Part shown: positions 16,071 through 57,046 of the stretch, one piece after another
How the letters are laid out: each line of letters opens with the position of its first letter
How positions within the stretch are numbered: the stretch's first letter is position 1
Source: Escherichia coli
Lineage (GTDB): Bacteria; Pseudomonadota; Gammaproteobacteria; Enterobacterales; Enterobacteriaceae
Strand: one strand, 5' to 3'
DNA: 64,000 bases
Assembly (NCBI RefSeq): GCF_003334305.1
Contig: NZ_QOWS01000002.1
The notes under the pieces: model-generated
Told to the model about the DNA's origin: nothing
The model's input: only the letters and a program-made list of their open reading frames with translations
Databases searched by the model: none
Program-made: the position numbers and the translations under genes

Positions 16071-16244
16071 ATGAAGCGGAGTAGAACGGAAGTGGGGCGC
16101 TGGCGCATGCAGCGTCAGGCTAGCCGACGTAAATCGCGTTGGCTTGAGGGGCAATCGCGCCGAAATATGCGTATCCACAGCATCAGGAAGTGCATTCTAA
16201 ACAAACAGCGTAACTCGTTATTGTTTGCGATCTACAATATCTAA
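16071..16244 (+). CDS. yciY: Small highly basic protein YciY (57 aa)
   Basis: ORF trimmed to MKRSRTEVGRWRMQRQ...; matches my recollection of a small annotated K-12 ORF here; TATAAT-like hexamer about 30 bp upstream. Confidence 0.5.
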   Translation: MKRSRTEVGRWRMQRQASRRKSRWLEGQSRRNMRIHSIRKCILNKQRNSLLFAIYNI

Positions 16245-16251
16245 ATGTACT

Positions 16252-16270
16252 GGGCACCATTGCGGTGCCC
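16252..16270. terminator. Hairpin between convergent yciY and kch (candidate bidirectional terminator)
   Basis: gggcacc-attgc-ggtgccc inverted repeat between the two stops. Confidence 0.45.
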
Positions 16271-16298
16271 AATAAGTTTACTCTTTCGTCTTTAAACT

Positions 16299-19090: not shown

Positions 19091-19097
19091 GCAGAAA

Positions 19098-19127
19098 GTC
19101 AAAAGCCTCCGACCGGAGGCTTTTGAC
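19098..19127. terminator. Bidirectional rho-independent terminator between tonB and yciA
   Basis: Perfect 13 bp stem gtcaaaagcctcc / ggaggcttttgac with gacc loop; A-run and T-run give U-tracts on either strand. Confidence 0.85.
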
Positions 19128-19129
19128 TA

Positions 19130-30228: not shown

Positions 30229-30250
30229 TGTTATTCTCTAATTTTGTTCA

Positions 30251-30280
30251 AAAAAAAGCCCGCTCATTAGGCGGGCTGGG
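30251..30280 (-). promoter_or_regulatory. trp attenuator terminator (3:4 hairpin plus U-run)
   Basis: Plus strand aaaaaaagcccgctcattaggcgggct, i.e. on the transcript agcccgccuaaugagcgggcuuuuuuu, between trpL and trpE. Confidence 0.95.
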
Positions 30281-30319
30281 TATCTGATTGCTTTACGCAT
30301 GGTGAATACACTGCCCGTT

Positions 30320-30364
30320 TCAGGAAGTGCGCCACCAACCTTTCAGTACGAAAATTGCTTTCAT
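30320..30364 (-). CDS. trpL: trp operon leader peptide (14 aa, tandem Trp codons)
   Basis: Reverse complement reads atgaaagcaattttcgtactgaaaggttggtggcgcacttcctga = [14 protein letters not shown]. Confidence 0.95.
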
Positions 30365-31383: not shown

Positions 31384-32000
31384 GCCAGTTTTTTTATATT
31401 CATCCTGATAACCCACAGCAACGTCTGATCAACCAGGCGGTGGAGATCGTGCGTAAAGGCGGGGTGATTGTTTATCCAACTGATTCCGGCTATGCGCTCG
31501 GCTGTAAAATTGAAGATAAAAACGCGATGGAGCGTATTTGTCGTATTCGCCAGCTGCCGGACGGTCACAACTTTACCCTGATGTGTCGCGATCTTTCTGA
31601 ACTCTCGACCTATTCATTTGTTGATAACGTTGCGTTTCGTTTAATGAAAAACAACACGCCGGGCAACTATACCTTCATCTTGAAGGGGACGAAGGAAGTG
31701 CCACGCCGTCTGTTGCAGGAAAAACGCAAAACCATCGGTATGCGTGTGCCTTCTAACCCGATTGCGCAGGCGTTGCTTGAAGCACTGGGCGAACCGATGC
31801 TTTCCACTTCGCTAATGCTGCCAGGCAGCGAATTTACCGAATCCGATCCCGAAGAAATTAAAGACCGTCTGGAAAAACAGGTAGATTTGATTATTCACGG
31901 CGGCTATCTCGGGCAGAAACCGACAACGGTTATTGATCTTACCGATGATACGCCGGTCGTGGTGCGTGAAGGCGTAGGTGATGTGAAGCCTTTCTTATAA
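31380..32000 (+). CDS. yciO: YrdC/Sua5-family protein YciO
   Basis: ORF trimmed to MSQFFYIHPDNPQQRLINQAVEIVRKGGVIVYPTDSGYALGC (206 aa); ATG overlaps the trpH stop (ATGA). Confidence 0.88.
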   Translation: MSQFFYIHPDNPQQRLINQAVEIVRKGGVIVYPTDSGYALGCKIEDKNAMERICRIRQLPDGHNFTLMCRDLSELSTYSFVDNVAFRLMKNNTPGNYTFILKGTKEVPRRLLQEKRKTIGMRVPSNPIAQALLEALGEPMLSTSLMLPGSEFTESDPEEIKDRLEKQVDLIIHGGYLGQKPTTVIDLTDDTPVVVREGVGDVKPFL

Positions 32001-32100
32001 GTGCGTAACTCTGTATACTACGCGGCCTTAAAATGGCGCTATACGGCGCCATTGATTCTCCTGTTCGACGCCTGTGAAGGCGACACTAAAAGGAAGCTCT

Positions 32101-34577: not shown

Positions 34578-35627
34578 GTGGAATTGTTGTCTGAATATGG
34601 TTTGTTTTTGGCGAAAATCGTTACCGTTGTGCTAGCGATTGCGGCGATTGCCGCCATTATTGTCAATGTTGCTCAACGTAATAAACGCCAGCATGGCGAG
34701 TTACGGGTCAACAATCTCAGCGAACAGTATAAGGAGATGAAAGAAGAACTGGCCGCGGCGCTGATGGACTCACATCAGCAAAAACAGTGGCACAAAGCGC
34801 AGAAGAAAAAGCACAAGCAAGAAGCGAAAGCAGCAAAAGCGAAAGCCAAACTGGGCGAGGTGGCAACTGACAGTAAACCTCGCGTCTGGGTGCTGGATTT
34901 TAAAGGCAGCATGGACGCCCATGAAGTGAACTCGCTACGTGAAGAGATAACGGCGGTACTCGCAGCATTCAAACCGCAGGATCAGGTTGTGCTCCGTCTG
35001 GAAAGCCCTGGTGGCATGGTGCATGGTTACGGGTTGGCGGCTTCGCAGCTGCAGCGTCTGCGTGATAAAAACATTCCTTTAACTGTTACGGTAGACAAAG
35101 TCGCTGCCAGCGGCGGTTACATGATGGCCTGTGTGGCGGACAAAATTGTTTCCGCACCGTTTGCTATTGTGGGTTCCATTGGGGTGGTGGCGCAAATGCC
35201 CAACTTTAACCGCTTCCTGAAAAGCAAAGATATTGATATCGAACTGCACACTGCCGGGCAGTATAAGCGTACTCTGACCTTGCTGGGTGAAAATACCGAA
35301 GAAGGGCGGGAGAAATTCCGCGAAGAGTTGAACGAAACGCATCAGTTGTTTAAAGATTTTGTGAAGCGTATGCGTCCGTCTCTGGATATTGAACAGGTGG
35401 CAACGGGTGAACACTGGTACGGACAACAGGCGGTAGAGAAAGGCCTGGTTGATGAAATCAACACCAGTGATGAAGTTATTCTTAGCTTGATGGAAGGCCG
35501 TGAAGTGGTTAATGTACGCTATATGCAGCGTAAACGACTCATTGACCGATTCACCGGCAGCGCGGCAGAGAGCGCCGATCGATTGTTGCTACGCTGGTGG
35601 CAGCGGGGTCAAAAGCCATTGATGTAA
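34578..35627 (+). CDS. sohB: S49-family inner membrane peptidase SohB
   Basis: 349 aa ORF with N-terminal TM segment and ClpP/SppA-like domain. Confidence 0.93.
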   Translation: MELLSEYGLFLAKIVTVVLAIAAIAAIIVNVAQRNKRQHGELRVNNLSEQYKEMKEELAAALMDSHQQKQWHKAQKKKHKQEAKAAKAKAKLGEVATDSKPRVWVLDFKGSMDAHEVNSLREEITAVLAAFKPQDQVVLRLESPGGMVHGYGLAASQLQRLRDKNIPLTVTVDKVAASGGYMMACVADKIVSAPFAIVGSIGVVAQMPNFNRFLKSKDIDIELHTAGQYKRTLTLLGENTEEGREKFREELNETHQLFKDFVKRMRPSLDIEQVATGEHWYGQQAVEKGLVDEINTSDEVILSLMEGREVVNVRYMQRKRLIDRFTGSAAESADRLLLRWWQRGQKPLM

Positions 35628-35633
35628 AAGACA

Positions 35634-35660
35634 AACGCGAGGCTAAGACCTCGCGTTTTG
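35634..35660. terminator. Bidirectional terminator between sohB and yciN
   Basis: aacgcgagg-ctaaga-cctcgcgtt hairpin with flanking A/T runs. Confidence 0.7.
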
Positions 35661-35662
35661 CT

Positions 35663-35914
35663 TTAATCAACCAGATGATATTTTTCTGAAAGCACATGGG
35701 CCAGGTGTTTGAACATATTAAACACCGCGGTGCTTTTGGCTGTTGGCAATCCTTGTTCATCTAAAAAGTAGTCGCCGGTAAATACCAGCACGCCATTACG
35801 CTGCGTGACGCCGGTGGCTTCAATCCCTGCGAGCGTATCCTCATGCTCACGAATGATTTTGTTGGCCTCTTTCAACAGCGTTTCGCGGTCGATGGGTTGT
35901 GTCTCTTTGTTCAT
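35663..35914 (-). CDS. yciN: DUF2498 family protein YciN
   Basis: 83 aa ORF, length and position match YciN. Confidence 0.88.
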
Positions 35915-40704: not shown

Positions 40705-41076
40705 TTATCATCATTCTTATTACCCATTTTTAATGAATTAAAGGGCTTTTAATACACCGCAGCAATAACAGCTTGAGTTATCTCAACACAAAATAATAAC
40801 CGTTAAGGGTGTAGCCTATGATCAACACAAATATGAAATATTGGTCCTGGATGGGCGCGTTTTCTCTGTCGATGCTCTTCTGGGCCGAACTCCTCTGGAT
40901 CATTACTCACTGATCCTTGACCCCGCTGCGGCGGGGTTGTCATTTGCTTTGCCACAAGGTTTCTCCTCTTTTATCAATTTGGGTTGTTATCAAATCGTTA
41001 CGCGATGTTTGTGTTATCTTTAATATTCACCCTGAAGAGAATCAGTGCTTCGCAACCCTGTCATTAAGGAGGAGCT

Positions 41077-43752
41077 ATGTCGTCAACCCTACGAGAAGCC
41101 AGTAAGGACACGTTGCAGGCCAAAGATAAAACTTACCACTACTACAGCCTGCCGCTTGCTGCTAAATCACTGGGCGATATCACCCGTCTGCCCAAGTCAC
41201 TCAAAGTTTTGCTCGAAAACCTGCTGCGCTGGCAGGATGGTAACTCGGTTACCGAAGAGGATATCCACGCGCTGGCAGGATGGCTGAAAAATGCCCATGC
41301 TGACCGTGAAATTGCCTACCGCCCGGCAAGGGTGCTGATGCAGGACTTTACCGGCGTACCTGCCGTTGTTGATCTGGCGGCAATGCGCGAAGCGGTTAAA
41401 CGCCTCGGCGGCGATACTGCAAAGGTTAACCCGCTCTCACCGGTCGACCTGGTCATTGACCACTCGGTGACCGTCGATCGTTTTGGTGATGATGAGGCAT
41501 TTGAAGAAAACGTACGCCTGGAAATGGAGCGCAACCACGAACGTTATGTGTTCCTGAAATGGGGAAAGCAAGCGTTCAGTCGGTTTAGCGTCGTGCCGCC
41601 AGGCACAGGCATTTGCCATCAGGTTAACCTCGAATATCTCGGCAAAGCAGTGTGGAGTGAATTGCAGGACGGTGAATGGATTGCTTATCCGGATACACTC
41701 GTTGGTACTGACTCGCACACCACTATGATCAACGGCCTTGGCGTGCTGGGGTGGGGCGTGGGTGGGATCGAAGCAGAAGCCGCAATGTTAGGCCAGCCGG
41801 TTTCCATGCTTATCCCGGACGTAGTGGGCTTTAAACTTACCGGTAAATTACGTGAAGGTATTACCGCCACAGACCTAGTTCTCACTGTTACCCAAATGCT
41901 GCGCAAACATGGCGTGGTGGGGAAATTCGTCGAATTTTATGGTGATGGTCTGGATTCACTACCGCTGGCGGATCGCGCCACCATTGCCAATATGTCGCCA
42001 GAATATGGTGCCACCTGTGGCTTCTTCCCAATCGATGCTGTAACCCTCGATTACATGCGTTTAAGCGGGCGCAGCGAAGATCAGGTTGAGTTGGTCGAAA
42101 AATATGCCAAAGCGCAGGGCATGTGGCGTAACCCGGGCGATGAACCGATTTTTACCAGTACGTTAGAACTGGATATGAATGACGTTGAAGCGAGCCTGGC
42201 AGGGCCAAAACGCCCACAGGATCGCGTTGCACTGCCCGATGTACCAAAAGCATTTGCCGCCAGTAACGAACTGGAAGTGAATGCCACGCATAAAGATCGC
42301 CAGCCGGTCGATTATGTTATGAACGGACATCAGTATCAGTTACCTGATGGCGCTGTGGTCATTGCTGCGATAACCTCGTGCACCAACACCTCTAACCCAA
42401 GTGTGCTGATGGCTGCAGGCTTGCTGGCGAAAAAAGCCGTAACTCTTGGCCTCAAGCGGCAACCGTGGGTCAAAGCGTCGCTGGCACCAGGCTCGAAAGT
42501 TGTTTCTGATTATCTGGCAAAAGCGAAATTGACACCGTATCTCGACGAACTGGGGTTTAACCTTGTGGGATACGGTTGTACCACCTGTATTGGTAACTCT
42601 GGGCCGCTGCCCGATCCTATCGAAACGGCAATCAAAAAAGGCGATTTAACCGTCGGTGCAGTGCTGTCCGGCAACCGTAACTTTGAAGGCCGTATCCATC
42701 CGCTGGTTAAAACCAACTGGCTGGCCTCGCCGCCGCTGGTGGTTGCCTATGCGCTGGCGGGAAATATGAATATCAACCTGGCTTCTGAGCCTATCGGCCA
42801 TGATCGTAAAGGCGATCCGGTATATCTGAAAGATATCTGGCCATCGGCACAAGAAATTGCCCGTGCGGTAGAACAAGTCTCCACAGAAATGTTCCGCAAA
42901 GAGTACGCAGAAGTTTTTGAAGGCACAGCAGAGTGGAAGGAAATTAACGTCACACGATCCGATACCTACGGTTGGCAGGAGGACTCAACCTATATTCGCT
43001 TATCGCCTTTCTTTGATGAAATGCAGGCAACACCAGCACCAGTGGAAGATATTCACGGTGCGCGGATCCTCGCAATGCTGGGGGATTCAGTCACCACTGA
43101 CCATATCTCTCCGGCGGGCAGTATTAAGCCCGACAGCCCAGCGGGTCGATATCTACAAGGTCGGGGTGTTGAGCGAAAAGACTTTAACTCCTACGGTTCG
43201 CGGCGTGGTAACCATGAAGTGATGATGCGCGGCACCTTCGCCAATATTCGCATCCGTAATGAAATGGTGCCTGGCGTTGAAGGGGGGATGACGCGGCATT
43301 TACCTGACAGCGACGTAGTCTCTATTTATGATGCTGCGATGCGCTATAAGCAGGAACAAACGCCGCTGGCGGTGATTGCCGGGAAAGAGTATGGATCAGG
43401 CTCAAGCCGTGACTGGGCGGCAAAAGGTCCTCGTCTGCTTGGAATTCGTGTGGTGATTGCCGAATCGTTTGAACGAATTCACCGTTCGAATTTAATTGGC
43501 ATGGGCATCCTGCCGCTGGAATTTCCGCAAGGCGTAACGCGTAAAACGTTAGGACTAACCGGGGAAGAGAAGATTGATATTGGCGATCTGCAAAATCTAC
43601 AACCCGGTGCGACGGTTCCGGTGACGCTTACGCGCGCGGATGGTAGCCAGGAGGTCGTACCCTGCCGTTGTCGTATCGACACCGCGACGGAGTTGACCTA
43701 CTACCAGAACGACGGCATTTTGCATTATGTCATTCGTAATATGTTGAAGTAA
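41077..43752 (+). CDS. acnA: Aconitate hydratase A
   Basis: 891 aa ORF with aconitase Fe-S ligand motifs and C-terminal swivel domain; length matches AcnA. Confidence 0.96.
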
Positions 43753-43758
43753 CAAGTA

Positions 43759-43793
43759 TTTGCTTGCCGGTTATTTTGCTTCCGGCAAGCAAA
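43759..43793. terminator. Bidirectional terminator between acnA and ribA
   Basis: Perfect 12 bp inverted repeat tttgcttgccgg / ccggcaagcaaa around an 11 nt T-rich loop. Confidence 0.7.
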
Positions 43794-43815
43794 CTAATTA
43801 CACAATGCAAGAGGG

Positions 43816-44406
43816 TTATTTGTTCAGCAAATGGCCCATTTTCTCGGCTTTGGTATCGAGATAATGTTCGTTATTGGGGTTACGACCTACAATCAATGGT
43901 ACGCGTTCAACAATATTAATCCCTGCTTCGGTCAGAATTTCGACTTTTTTCGGGTTATTGGTTAACAAGCGGACTTCATTGACGCCAAGGAGTTTGAACA
44001 TATCAGCGCAAAGAGTGAAGTCGCGCTCATCAGCGGCGAAGCCTAACTGGTGGTTAGCCTCTACGGTATCGTAACCTTGATCCTGCAGTGCGTAAGCGCG
44101 GATTTTATTCAGCAGACCAATGTTACGACCTTCCTGACGGTGATACAGCAAAATACCACGGCCTTCCTCGGCAATTTGCGTCAATGCCGCTTCGAGCTGG
44201 AAGCCACAATCGCAGCGCAAGCTGAACAGGGCGTCACCGGTCAGACATTCGGAATGGACGCGCGCAAGTACCGGGGTATGCCCGGAAATATCGCCATAGA
44301 CTAGCGCGACATGATCGTGTCCGGTTGCCAGTTCTTCAAATCCCACCATCAGGAAATCGCCCCATGGGGTTGGCAGTTTGGCTTCTGCCACACGTTTAAG
44401 CTGCAT
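43816..44406 (-). CDS. ribA: GTP cyclohydrolase II
   Basis: ORF trimmed to [26 protein letters not shown]... (196 aa) with zinc-binding Cys motif [15 protein letters not shown]. Confidence 0.93.
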
Positions 44407-44575
44407 GAAATTCTCCAGATAATGCTGGTTCTGTATTGGCTTATTTTGCCATAACGAGAAGGGGTTCACCTAATCACGACGCGTCGATCGTTCACGGAAT
44501 GGCACAAATCTGTCAATTTTTCCTGGAACTGGCGTTTTCAGTTATGATTGTGGGACTTATCAAAAAGGAGAGGCC

Positions 44576-45340
44576 ATGCGTTCGATTGCCAGACGTACCG
44601 CAGTGGGAGCTGCACTATTGCTTGTCATGCCAGTAGCCGTATGGATTTCTGGCTGGCGTTGGCAACCTGGAGAACAAAGTTGGCTACTAAAAGCGGCTTT
44701 TTGGGTTACTGAAACTGTCACCCAGCCCTGGGGCGTCATTACACATTTGATTTTATTCGGCTGGTTTCTCTGGTGTCTGCGTTTTCGCATTAAGGCTGCC
44801 TTTGTATTATTTGCCATTCTGGCGGCCGCAATCCTTGTGGGACAAGGCGTTAAATCCTGGATCAAAGACAAAGTCCAGGAACCACGACCTTTTGTTATCT
44901 GGCTGGAAAAAACACATCATATTCCGGTTGATGAGTTCTACACTTTAAAGCGAGCAGAACGCGGAAATCTAGTGAAAGAACAGTTGGCTGAAGAGAAAAA
45001 TATCCCACAATATTTGCGTTCACACTGGCAGAAAGAGACGGGGTTTGCCTTTCCTTCCGGTCACACGATGTTTGCTGCCAGTTGGGCACTGCTGGCCGTT
45101 GGTTTGCTGTGGCCGCGTCGGCGAACGTTAACCATTGCTATCTTGCTGGTCTGGGCAACGGGAGTCATGGGAAGCCGCCTGCTGCTCGGGATGCATTGGC
45201 CACGCGATCTGGTAGTAGCTACGTTGATTTCGTGGGCGCTGGTGGCGGTGGCAACGTGGCTTGCGCAACGAATTTGTGGGCCATTAACACCACCTGCGGA
45301 AGAAAATCGCGAAATAGCGCAACGAGAACAAGAAAGTTAA
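44576..45340 (+). CDS. pgpB: Phosphatidylglycerophosphatase B (PAP2 family)
   Basis: 254 aa multi-TM ORF with PAP2 motifs (PSGH, SRLLLGMHWPRD). Confidence 0.93.
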   Translation: MRSIARRTAVGAALLLVMPVAVWISGWRWQPGEQSWLLKAAFWVTETVTQPWGVITHLILFGWFLWCLRFRIKAAFVLFAILAAAILVGQGVKSWIKDKVQEPRPFVIWLEKTHHIPVDEFYTLKRAERGNLVKEQLAEEKNIPQYLRSHWQKETGFAFPSGHTMFAASWALLAVGLLWPRRRTLTIAILLVWATGVMGSRLLLGMHWPRDLVVATLISWALVAVATWLAQRICGPLTPPAEENREIAQREQES

Positions 45341-48229: not shown

Positions 48230-48235
48230 CATAAA

Positions 48236-48262
48236 AAGCCACGGATATATCCGTGGCTTTCG
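48236..48262. terminator. Bidirectional terminator between yciH and osmB
   Basis: agccacgga-tata-tccgtggct hairpin flanked by aaaaa and ttt. Confidence 0.75.
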
Positions 48263-48573: not shown

Positions 48574-48841
48574 AATACTCTCTCCTGAATTTATGATTCA
48601 CGGAAGTAAGCTCTCTATAACTATAATAGCTAAGAATAAGCCTGGTGAAATTATTCCGTGAAATCTGCTCGCGCGCAGGGTTATATCACGCAGGTGATAA
48701 TGACTTCCTGTTATATCGCTGATAATAATTTTATATCTTGAGAGTGTTAATAACAGGTAAATAGTCTTAATTATCAACCAGGAATCATCTTAGAGCGGAT
48801 GATTTGCCAAACTGCAAATCATCCGTAGAGAAGGGAAATGG

Positions 48842-56670: not shown

Positions 56671-57005
56671 CGGTTCAGTTCCTGCAGAATATTCTCCAGC
56701 ACCGTCTCCTCATTACAATCAATCTCGTTATTCCAGAAACGCAGCACGGTCCAGCCCTGCGACTCAAGCCAGCTAGTGCGCCTGGAATCATAGGCAACTG
56801 CTAAATCATGCTGCCCACCATCCAGCTCAACGACTACACGCGCCGAGCAGCAAGCAAAATCGAGAATGTAGCTCCCCACTGGATGTTGACGGCGAAATTT
56901 GAAATCACTAAAACGTCGGCTGCGAAGATATCGCCAGAGCTTTCGTTCCTGCAAAGTGAGATTGCGTCTTAAATCACGCGCATTTGATTTAATTTTATCT
57001 ATCAC
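56652..57005 (-). CDS. ycjD: DUF559 (Vsr-like endonuclease fold) protein YcjD
   Basis: 117 aa ORF with GTG start, MIDKIKSNARDLRRNLTLQERKLWRYLRSRRFSDFKFRRQHPVGSYILDFACC... Confidence 0.88.
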   Translation of the reverse strand: MIDKIKSNARDLRRNLTLQERKLWRYLRSRRFSDFKFRRQHPVGSYILDFACCSARVVVELDGGQHDLAVAYDSRRTSWLESQGWTVLRFWNNEIDCNEETVLENILQELNRRSPSP

Positions 57006-57046
57006 CTCATTCTGACAAGATTTAATCTTTTGTCAGAATGAGGTGA
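57002..57046. repeat. 17 bp perfect inverted repeat (candidate sap operon terminator; left arm covers the ycjD start codon)
   Basis: tcacctcattctgacaa - gatttaatctt - ttgtcagaatgaggtga, between the sapF stop and the ycjD start. Confidence 0.7.

Follow-up and report, generated by a model that had tools for sequence, protein, structure and literature searches.

The acnA and ribA genes of Escherichia coli converge on a short intergenic gap that holds a perfect palindrome. We analysed this element within a window, the whole stretch of 64,000 nucleotides under study, in which gene coordinates were assigned by transfer of RefSeq annotation. In the part of the window that contains acnA and ribA, the MG1655 coordinate equals the window position plus 1294754. 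The window is a piece of the Escherichia coli chromosome: a megablast search with positions 43000-44600 gave a match in 5423 of 5426 complete E. coli genomes, and the features beneath the matches were acnA, ribA, and pgpB. The coding sequence of acnA (aconitate hydratase A) occupies 41077-43752 on the + strand and ends in a TAA stop codon at 43750-43752. That of ribA (GTP cyclohydrolase II) occupies 43816-44406 on the - strand, which leaves a convergent gap of 63 nt between the two genes.

The palindrome is made up of a left arm (TTTGCTTGCCGG, 43759-43770), a loop of 11 nt (TTATTTTGCTT, 43771-43781), and a right arm (CCGGCAAGCAAA, 43782-43793), all three recorded without a strand. The stop codon of acnA lies 6 nt before the stem, and that of ribA 22 nt before it on the - strand. 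The arms are 100% complementary and form a perfect 12-bp stem, just as the initial annotation of this DNA had described for positions 43759-43793; the G+C content of the stem is 58%. Within the loop, the stretch TTTGCTT is a copy of the first 7 nt of the left arm. The folding energy of the RNA hairpin is -19.4 kcal/mol for the + strand (z -5.3) and -18.9 kcal/mol for the - strand (z -5.9), and none of 200 shuffles folded as stably. Small ORFs running over the hairpin started with TTG only, were 26-52 aa long, and had no support. No Rfam family matched the hairpin, either at the gathering threshold in a search of the whole window or at E <= 1 in a search of 43600-43950. The only Rfam matches in the window were to the sRNA STnc180, upstream of acnA (40745-40947, + strand, 198 bits), and to the trp operon leader (30250-30343, - strand, 93 bits).

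Long palindromes are strongly enriched in this window. It contains nine perfect stems of at least 10 bp with loops of up to 12 nt, against 0.8 in dinucleotide shuffles (n=40), and five perfect stems of at least 12 bp with the same loop limit, against 0.025 +/- 0.16 in 40 dinucleotide shuffles, an excess of ~200-fold over chance. Convergent gaps account for 1.8% of the window and hold seven of the nine stems of at least 10 bp (binomial P = 2e-11). The acnA/ribA palindrome is not a chance product. Six of the seven palindromes in convergent gaps display the classical shape of an A run, a G+C stem, and a T run, as exemplified by tonB (AAAAGCCTCCG...CGGAGGCTTTT) and osmB (AAAGCCACGG...CCGTGGCTTT). 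The acnA/ribA palindrome is the exception.

The initial annotation had named hairpins at four convergent pairs, namely tonB/yciA, acnA/ribA, yciH/osmB, and sohB/yciN, and all four exist. The tonB/yciA palindrome (AGTCAAAAGCCTCCG ac CGGAGGCTTTTGACT, 19097-19128) is a classical bidirectional intrinsic terminator of the A-run/stem/T-run type. The stem length of 13 bp given for it needs correction, as its arms are perfect over 15 nt and fold into 14 bp with a 4-nt loop. The hairpin between sohB and yciN (35627-35664) has A/T-rich flanks and a stem that is perfect over 10 bp and extends to 16 nt at 88%, and a primary Term-seq 3' end of sohB is assigned to it. The perfect palindrome between yciH and osmB (AAAGCCACGGATA/TATCCGTGGCTTT, 48235-48260) has arms of 13 nt. 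The description of all four as flanked by A and T runs holds for tonB/yciA, yciH/osmB, and sohB/yciN, but not for acnA/ribA, where the polarity is reversed and the runs lie inside the stem.

Two further features of the window were observed along the way. The longest perfect inverted repeat (57002-57046) has 17-bp arms (TCACCTCATTCTGACAA / TTGTCAGAATGAGGTGA) and an 11-nt loop. It lies outside the convergent gaps, in the stretch that separates the sapF stop from the ycjD start on the - strand, and was absent from the initial annotation. One of its arms contains ATGAGGTGA and therefore overlaps the annotated start codon of ycjD. Meanwhile, the offset between MG1655 and window coordinates shifts by ~2036 nt between tonB and rluB, at the yciO/rluB junction (~31900-32100). 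K-12 carries yciQ between yciO and rluB, the window and strain M8 are without it, and strain H15 has a different island there, with YagK/YfjJ, DUF4238, and recombinase genes. This junction looks like a variable insertion spot.

Terminator scoring sets the acnA/ribA hairpin apart from the terminators of the window. All hairpins were scored on both strands with a d score of the type of d'Aubenton-Carafa (1990), combined with modern energy parameters. As a ranking within the window only, the terminators of hns, adhE, oppF, tonB, yciN, osmB, topA, and rnb reached d values from about -2.5 to +64, with U-tail weights (nT) of 2.7-5.4. Among these, yciH/osmB scored +27.5 on the osmB strand, which is good, and -2.5 on the yciH strand, which is marginal. 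At acnA/ribA, there is no U-tract 3' of the stem in the direction of acnA (+ strand; nT 0.19-0.32, d -57), and no A-tract 5' of the stem that would give a U-tract in the direction of ribA (nT 0.39-0.65, d -52). The polarity of its A and T runs (TTTG...CAAA) is the opposite of that at tonB, osmB, yciN, hns, and adhE: T's occupy the 5' side, A's the 3' side, and both lie within the stem. The tails that follow the stem are CTAATTAC on the + strand, which reads TGAATTAC in K-12, and TACTTGTT on the - strand, which is without a run. Both are A/U-rich (7 of 9 nt). Furthermore, the 11-nt loop exceeds the 3-8 nt accepted by the terminator scan, so the hairpin was not called by it. With no U-tract on either side, release of RNA polymerase by the textbook intrinsic mechanism is unlikely.

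The d value of acnA/ribA resembles that of the hairpin at the 3' end of yciT (48796-48825, d -42), a perfect 12-bp stem without a U-tract. The primary 3' end of yciT reported by Adams et al. is at MG1655 1343547 on the - strand, which is position 48793 of the window and lies 3 nt beyond the end of the stem. Another 180 nt downstream, at 1343365 (-), there is a Rho region. The yciT hairpin is a clean local case of Rho termination combined with a protective hairpin. We counted the similar score, together with the 3' end and the Rho region of yciT, in favour of a model of pausing and trimming at acnA/ribA.

The initial annotation regarded the acnA/ribA palindrome as a genuine bidirectional intrinsic terminator, and a weak version of this is conceivable, in which the hairpin and its A/U-rich tail release the polymerase directly in both directions. 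The stability of the stem (-19 kcal/mol) suits such a role. The lack of a U run on either side, the reversed A/T polarity, a d of about -55 that falls far under every accepted terminator of the window, and a loop outside the usual range all argue against it. The position of the acnA stop codon adds to these objections, since a coupled ribosome only 6 nt upstream would be able to block folding of the hairpin. At the terminator tR2, termination dropped from ~90% to <10% when the distance to an upstream stop codon was shortened from 28 to 5 bp (PMC4824070), and we counted this effect, together with the 6-nt spacing at acnA, in favour of pausing and trimming as well. Even with the ends and the orthologous junctions described below in its favour, we regard a weak intrinsic terminator as improbable. 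The label of textbook bidirectional terminator does not fit acnA/ribA, with no U-tract on either strand and d of about -55.

The RNA ends at this site have already been mapped. A supplementary table of bioRxiv 10.64898/2026.03.23.713779, a 2026 preprint on REP elements, contains 306 bidirectional terminators mapped in vivo. Its columns include the overlap region, the predicted fold, the numbers of A and U in the flanks, and the growth phase of detection (log or stationary). The preprint attributes the table to a 'previous' study, described elsewhere in it as an in vivo genome-wide termination screen. The columns fit the wording of Wang et al. 2022 on the overlapping bidirectional sites found by SEnd-seq (Ju et al., 2019), and we infer from this that the source of the table is the SEnd-seq work published by Ju, Li and Liu in 2019. 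As given in the supplement, acnA:ribA is entry 107, with an overlap of + and - transcript 3' ends at MG1655 1338508-1338550, equivalent to 43754-43796 of the window. This puts the end of the acnA mRNA near 43796 and that of the ribA mRNA near 43754. The entry was detected in both log and stationary phase, and is listed with -22.4 kcal/mol, a stem of 14, a loop of 11, a 5' flank of GUAACAAC (4 A), and a 3' flank of AAUUACAC (2 U of 8 nt). The three other pairs of the initial annotation are in the same table (tonB:yciA #102, yciN:sohB #105, osmB:yciH #108), which means that the finding was already known; the table also lists oppF/yciU, yciY/kch, ompW/yciE, and rluB/btuR from the window (bioRxiv 10.64898/2026.03.23.713779). 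The acnA/ribA site is already catalogued as a site of bidirectional termination, and its convergent genes and the overlap of their 3' ends over one stem-loop are those of the overlapping bidirectional terminator class. In this respect the initial annotation was right, as the hairpin is common to the two genes and both transcripts end there. The hairpin in the yciY/kch gap (16242-16280; entry 101) likewise has no U-tail on either strand (d -47 and -33), so that the window itself contains a second member of the U-less subclass.

The mapped ends are located 3 nt beyond the 12-bp stem for acnA (+) and 5 nt beyond it for ribA (-). On both strands, this is 6-8 nt after the GC-rich 9-bp core of the stem, which is also the release point expected for a weak intrinsic terminator; together with the A/U-rich tails, it counts in favour of direct release. 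In the curated Term-seq data of Adams et al. 2021, no 3' end is listed at the acnA/ribA hairpin. We rejected this as evidence against termination, as tonB, yciA, osmB, and yciH are likewise missing from the list, and the absence is therefore uninformative. The SMRT-Cappable-seq supplement lists neither acnA nor ribA.

Membership in the catalogued class brings in another explanation, in which the hairpin only pauses the polymerase, and head-on and rear-end collisions between polymerases converging from acnA and ribA dislodge the complexes there, without the need for Rho or a U-tract. In Wang et al. 2022, the discoverers of the class that includes acnA:ribA call it unlike intrinsic terminators and state that its sites are not Rho-dependent. 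The absent U-tract fits this explanation, and a stem-loop was needed in vitro to fix the position of the collision, although that work used a different template from acnA/ribA. The efficiency of collisions rises with traffic density, yet the site was seen in log phase too, and acnA is a gene of stress and stationary phase (PMC4150767). The modest expression of acnA, dependent on conditions, weakens this explanation here. Read-through sensitive to bicyclomycin on both strands also speaks against collisions as the driving force. We consider this explanation possible but on the unlikely side.

The read-through in question comes from Supplementary file 2 of Adams et al. 2021, in which bicyclomycin-sensitive Rho regions are found downstream of the acnA/ribA hairpin on both strands. 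In the sense of acnA and antisense to ribA, the peak is at 44059 on the + strand (MG1655 1338813), 266 nt past the hairpin, with counts of 88/38/142/169, a Rho score of 2.76, and p 4.8e-6. In the sense of ribA and antisense to acnA, it is at 43237 on the - strand (MG1655 1337991), 522 nt past the hairpin, with counts of 158/16/92/79, a Rho score of 8.48, and p 4.5e-15. Downstream of the hairpin, the C/G ratio on the - strand was sustained at 1.3-1.8 over 100-560 nt, whereas on the + strand it reached only 1.2-1.56 at 260-360 nt, near the Rho peak (background 90th percentile 1.5). The C>G skew is therefore evident on the - strand but only modest on the + strand, and such a downstream signal is not specific, as tonB shows it too. 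These regions argue against direct release by a weak intrinsic terminator, but they were called in 800-nt windows, and comparable ones are also found past the true intrinsic terminator of tonB and past most of the other convergent junctions of the window. For these reasons the evidence from read-through is suggestive rather than decisive, and the Rho regions were set aside as proof of Rho dependence. The initial annotation had proposed read-through on one strand as the sign of unidirectional function. At this low resolution, it is seen on both strands (1338813 on the + strand, 1337991 on the - strand), and its presence after tonB keeps it from settling the matter. It could be that Rho acts at acnA/ribA only as a backup.

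We investigated the conservation of the hairpin within Escherichia and across the Enterobacterales. Each of 5414 E. coli genomes has it at a single place, and at least 5404 of 5411 complete E. coli genomes share an identical 35-nt core. A 51-nt query separated the genomes into identity bands of 1117, 2000, and 2297, and the polymorphic bases are those that abut the stem (43753-43758 and 43794-43796). The length of the stem accordingly depends on the haplotype: the window has 12 bp, the H52 type 13 bp, and K-12, through additional A-U and U-G pairs, 14 bp. Rare single-base variants of the stem were uncompensated. Between E. coli and the E69 lineage, there were 0 differences in 24 stem positions against 8 in 28 flanking positions (Fisher p = 0.005). 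Judged from these alignments, the acnA/ribA hairpin is under constraint.

The E69 lineage itself (L003; CP089930.1, 'E. coli E69', ~2114-2124) has arms identical to those of the window and an 11-nt loop that is reverse-complemented. Its loop matches that of the window at 9 of 11 positions after inversion and at 1 of 11 directly (permutation P = 0.008). The flip between the perfect inverted repeats was probably brought about by template switching or intramolecular recombination. The flipped query of a perfect palindrome is equal to its reverse complement and matches the opposite strand, so that the search can be read through coverage only; by this measure, the flipped form was present in 0 of ~5410 complete E. 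coli genomes (none covered at least 80% of the query).

Outside E. coli, a scan for RibA with one genome per species retrieved 80 Enterobacterales loci, in 61 of which acnA converges on ribA within 200 nt. A hairpin was found at every one of the 61 junctions examined. Terminator-like U-tails were present on both strands at 29 of them and on one strand only at 18. The remaining 14 had no U-tail on either strand, and these include both Escherichia lineages, several species of Enterobacter, Kosakonia, and Phytobacter, and the junctions with true REPs. Canonical arrangements of A run, stem, and T run are displayed by Citrobacter (AAAAAAGCCTGC-N4-GCAGGCTTTTT) and Pantoea (AAAGCCGGG...CCCGGCTTTTTT), and also by Kosakonia, Cedecea, and Erwinia. 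What stays constant across these junctions is thus the hairpin, and the U-tract can be dispensed with. The canonical bidirectional terminators at 29 of 61 junctions point to termination as the ancestral function of this junction, which counts in favour of a weak intrinsic terminator. In Escherichia, a hairpin without U-tails has taken the place of the textbook terminator.

Some of these junctions carry palindromes of another origin. A further Escherichia lineage (L004; NZ_JAATUR010000011.1, ~2112-2140) has a different U-less palindrome, TTTGCCGGATG-ATCCA-CATCCGGCAAA, with a REP-like stem, and true REP-like elements occupy the acnA/ribA junction in Superficieibacter, Pseudescherichia, and Escherichia sp. 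ESNIH1 (L009, L015, and L034). The Escherichia hairpin may have descended from a REP-type insertion. A stronger proposition is that it has no function as RNA and is now only what decay has left of a REP-like or mobile palindrome, or else a DNA site bound by a protein. Its core, GCCGG...CCGGC, is common to REP stems, and the L004 palindrome and the true REPs just mentioned point in the same direction. But it is present once in each of 5414 genomes, entry 107 has nothing in the REP column where neighbouring entries carry REP names, the hairpin is strongly conserved relative to its flanks, and RNA 3' ends have been mapped at it on both strands. We give hardly any credence to such a remnant. The reading as a transposon end, REP, or mobile element was rejected on the single-copy nature of the element. 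The warning of the initial annotation that this palindrome is not a transposon end is borne out by its single copy per genome, its lack of an Rfam family, and the absence of a REP annotation.

With the acnA mRNA ending at about 43796, the 3' UTR of acnA is essentially the hairpin alone, which raises the idea that it might be an autoregulatory element, in which apo-AcnA binds the stem-loop of its own 3' UTR and stabilises the mRNA. Apo-AcnA is said to bind the acnA 3' UTR, in work attributed to Tang and Guest in 1999. A well-characterised analogue exists in acnB, where apo-AcnB footprints a stem-loop just 3' of the ORF that is required for binding and protection, with proof from compensatory mutants (PMC4150767). 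The acnA/ribA hairpin does not resemble in sequence the stem-loop of acnB, CAGCG-CACG-CGCTG, and it lacks an IRE-like CAGUG loop: its loop is UUAUUUUGCUU, and its stem is perfect and without a bulge. It is not conserved outside Escherichia, where ordinary terminators take its place, and the inverted loop of E69 would change the RNA loop shown on the acnA mRNA. We found no mention of the acnA 3' UTR in PMC10594875 or PMC11052181. On balance, we consider such a role for AcnA very unlikely. The palindromic symmetry of the stem is perfect, so that it also forms the 3' end of the ribA mRNA, and an extended version could be imagined in which the Fe-S status of aconitase co-stabilises the acnA and ribA mRNAs through an apo-AcnA site. 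This extension, drawn from the same analogy, would be about as improbable. If true, one shared DNA element would couple acnA and ribA, and thereby riboflavin and flavin supply, to iron-sulphur cluster status, and the loop inversion of the sister lineage would swap which mRNA displays which loop.

Based on these findings, we propose that the acnA/ribA palindrome is a shared, non-canonical 3'-end element, acting as a pause site and a block to exonucleases, with release by Rho taking place downstream. We put the probability of this reading at about 50%. The hairpin probably marks and protects RNA ends rather than stopping RNA polymerase by itself. The transcript of either strand folds into the same 12-bp stem, or one of 14 bp with the K-12 flanks, at which the polymerase would pause or which it would pass. 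Rho would then end the untranslated read-through a few hundred nt further on, antisense within the opposing gene. Subsequently, the 3'-to-5' exonucleases PNPase and RNase II would trim the tail back to the stem, following the model of Dar and Sorek 2018, and thereby stabilise both mRNAs. Such trimming could account for steady-state 3' ends of both mRNAs 3-5 nt past the stem in the published mapping. When both genes are active, head-on collisions with opposing polymerases at the hairpin pause may contribute, in line with the model of Ju, Wang and Liu.

Overall, the observation of the initial annotation is partly confirmed and its interpretation partly supported: the shared 3'-end site is right, and the textbook label is wrong. 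Beyond correct annotation this matters little, except that such palindromes should not be taken for transposon ends. It is also a correction in that not every palindrome in a convergent gap is a textbook intrinsic terminator.

The proposed element has points in common with several known systems. Like REP elements, which Harris et al. (2026 preprint) propose to be partial, bidirectional, Rho-dependent terminators and blocks to degradation, it is an extragenic palindrome without a U-tract between convergent genes. Unlike them, it is single-copy, has no REP consensus, and is not annotated as a REP. It resembles the stem-loop in the acnB 3' UTR (Benjamin and Masse 2014, PMC4150767) in its position directly downstream of an aconitase ORF. 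The two have no sequence similarity, and whereas acnA has this single hairpin, the binding stem-loop of acnB is followed downstream by a canonical terminator of its own that bears a U7 tract.

The closest parallel to the proposed role is with the protective stem-loops of Dar and Sorek 2018 (PMC6061677). According to that study, Rho-dependent transcripts end right after stable stem-loops that lack U's, to which PNPase and RNase II trim them. Likewise, acnA/ribA is a stable stem-loop with no U's after it and no A-tract before it, a 3' end directly follows the stem, and C>G skew and bicyclomycin-sensitive read-through are found downstream. Unlike those stem-loops, the acnA/ribA palindrome would serve both strands, and dependence on Rho and exonucleases is here only putative.

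The tonB-yciA terminator (P14), described as bidirectional and Rho-independent by Postle and Good 1985, as cited in PMC4824070, shares with acnA/ribA a perfect palindrome common to both genes, a short convergent gap, and a start 6 nt after the upstream stop codon. It differs in its AAAA-GCCUCC...GGAGGC-UUUU structure, which provides a U-tract on each strand (nT 3.1-3.5; d, as a ranking within the window, of +7 to +10). The UUUG...CAAA of acnA/ribA has the opposite polarity, with nT of 0.3-0.65 and d, on the same ranking, of about -55. Compared with the 306 overlapping bidirectional terminators, acnA/ribA is the same in kind, being itself entry 107, and within the portion of the table examined it stands at the extreme for its long loop (11 nt) and its scarcity of U (2 of 8). 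It falls into a debated subclass, for which either Rho termination with exonuclease trimming or polymerase collision is invoked. The acnA/ribA junction is a convenient natural test case for this debate, with a canonical terminator at exactly the same position in close relatives such as Citrobacter.
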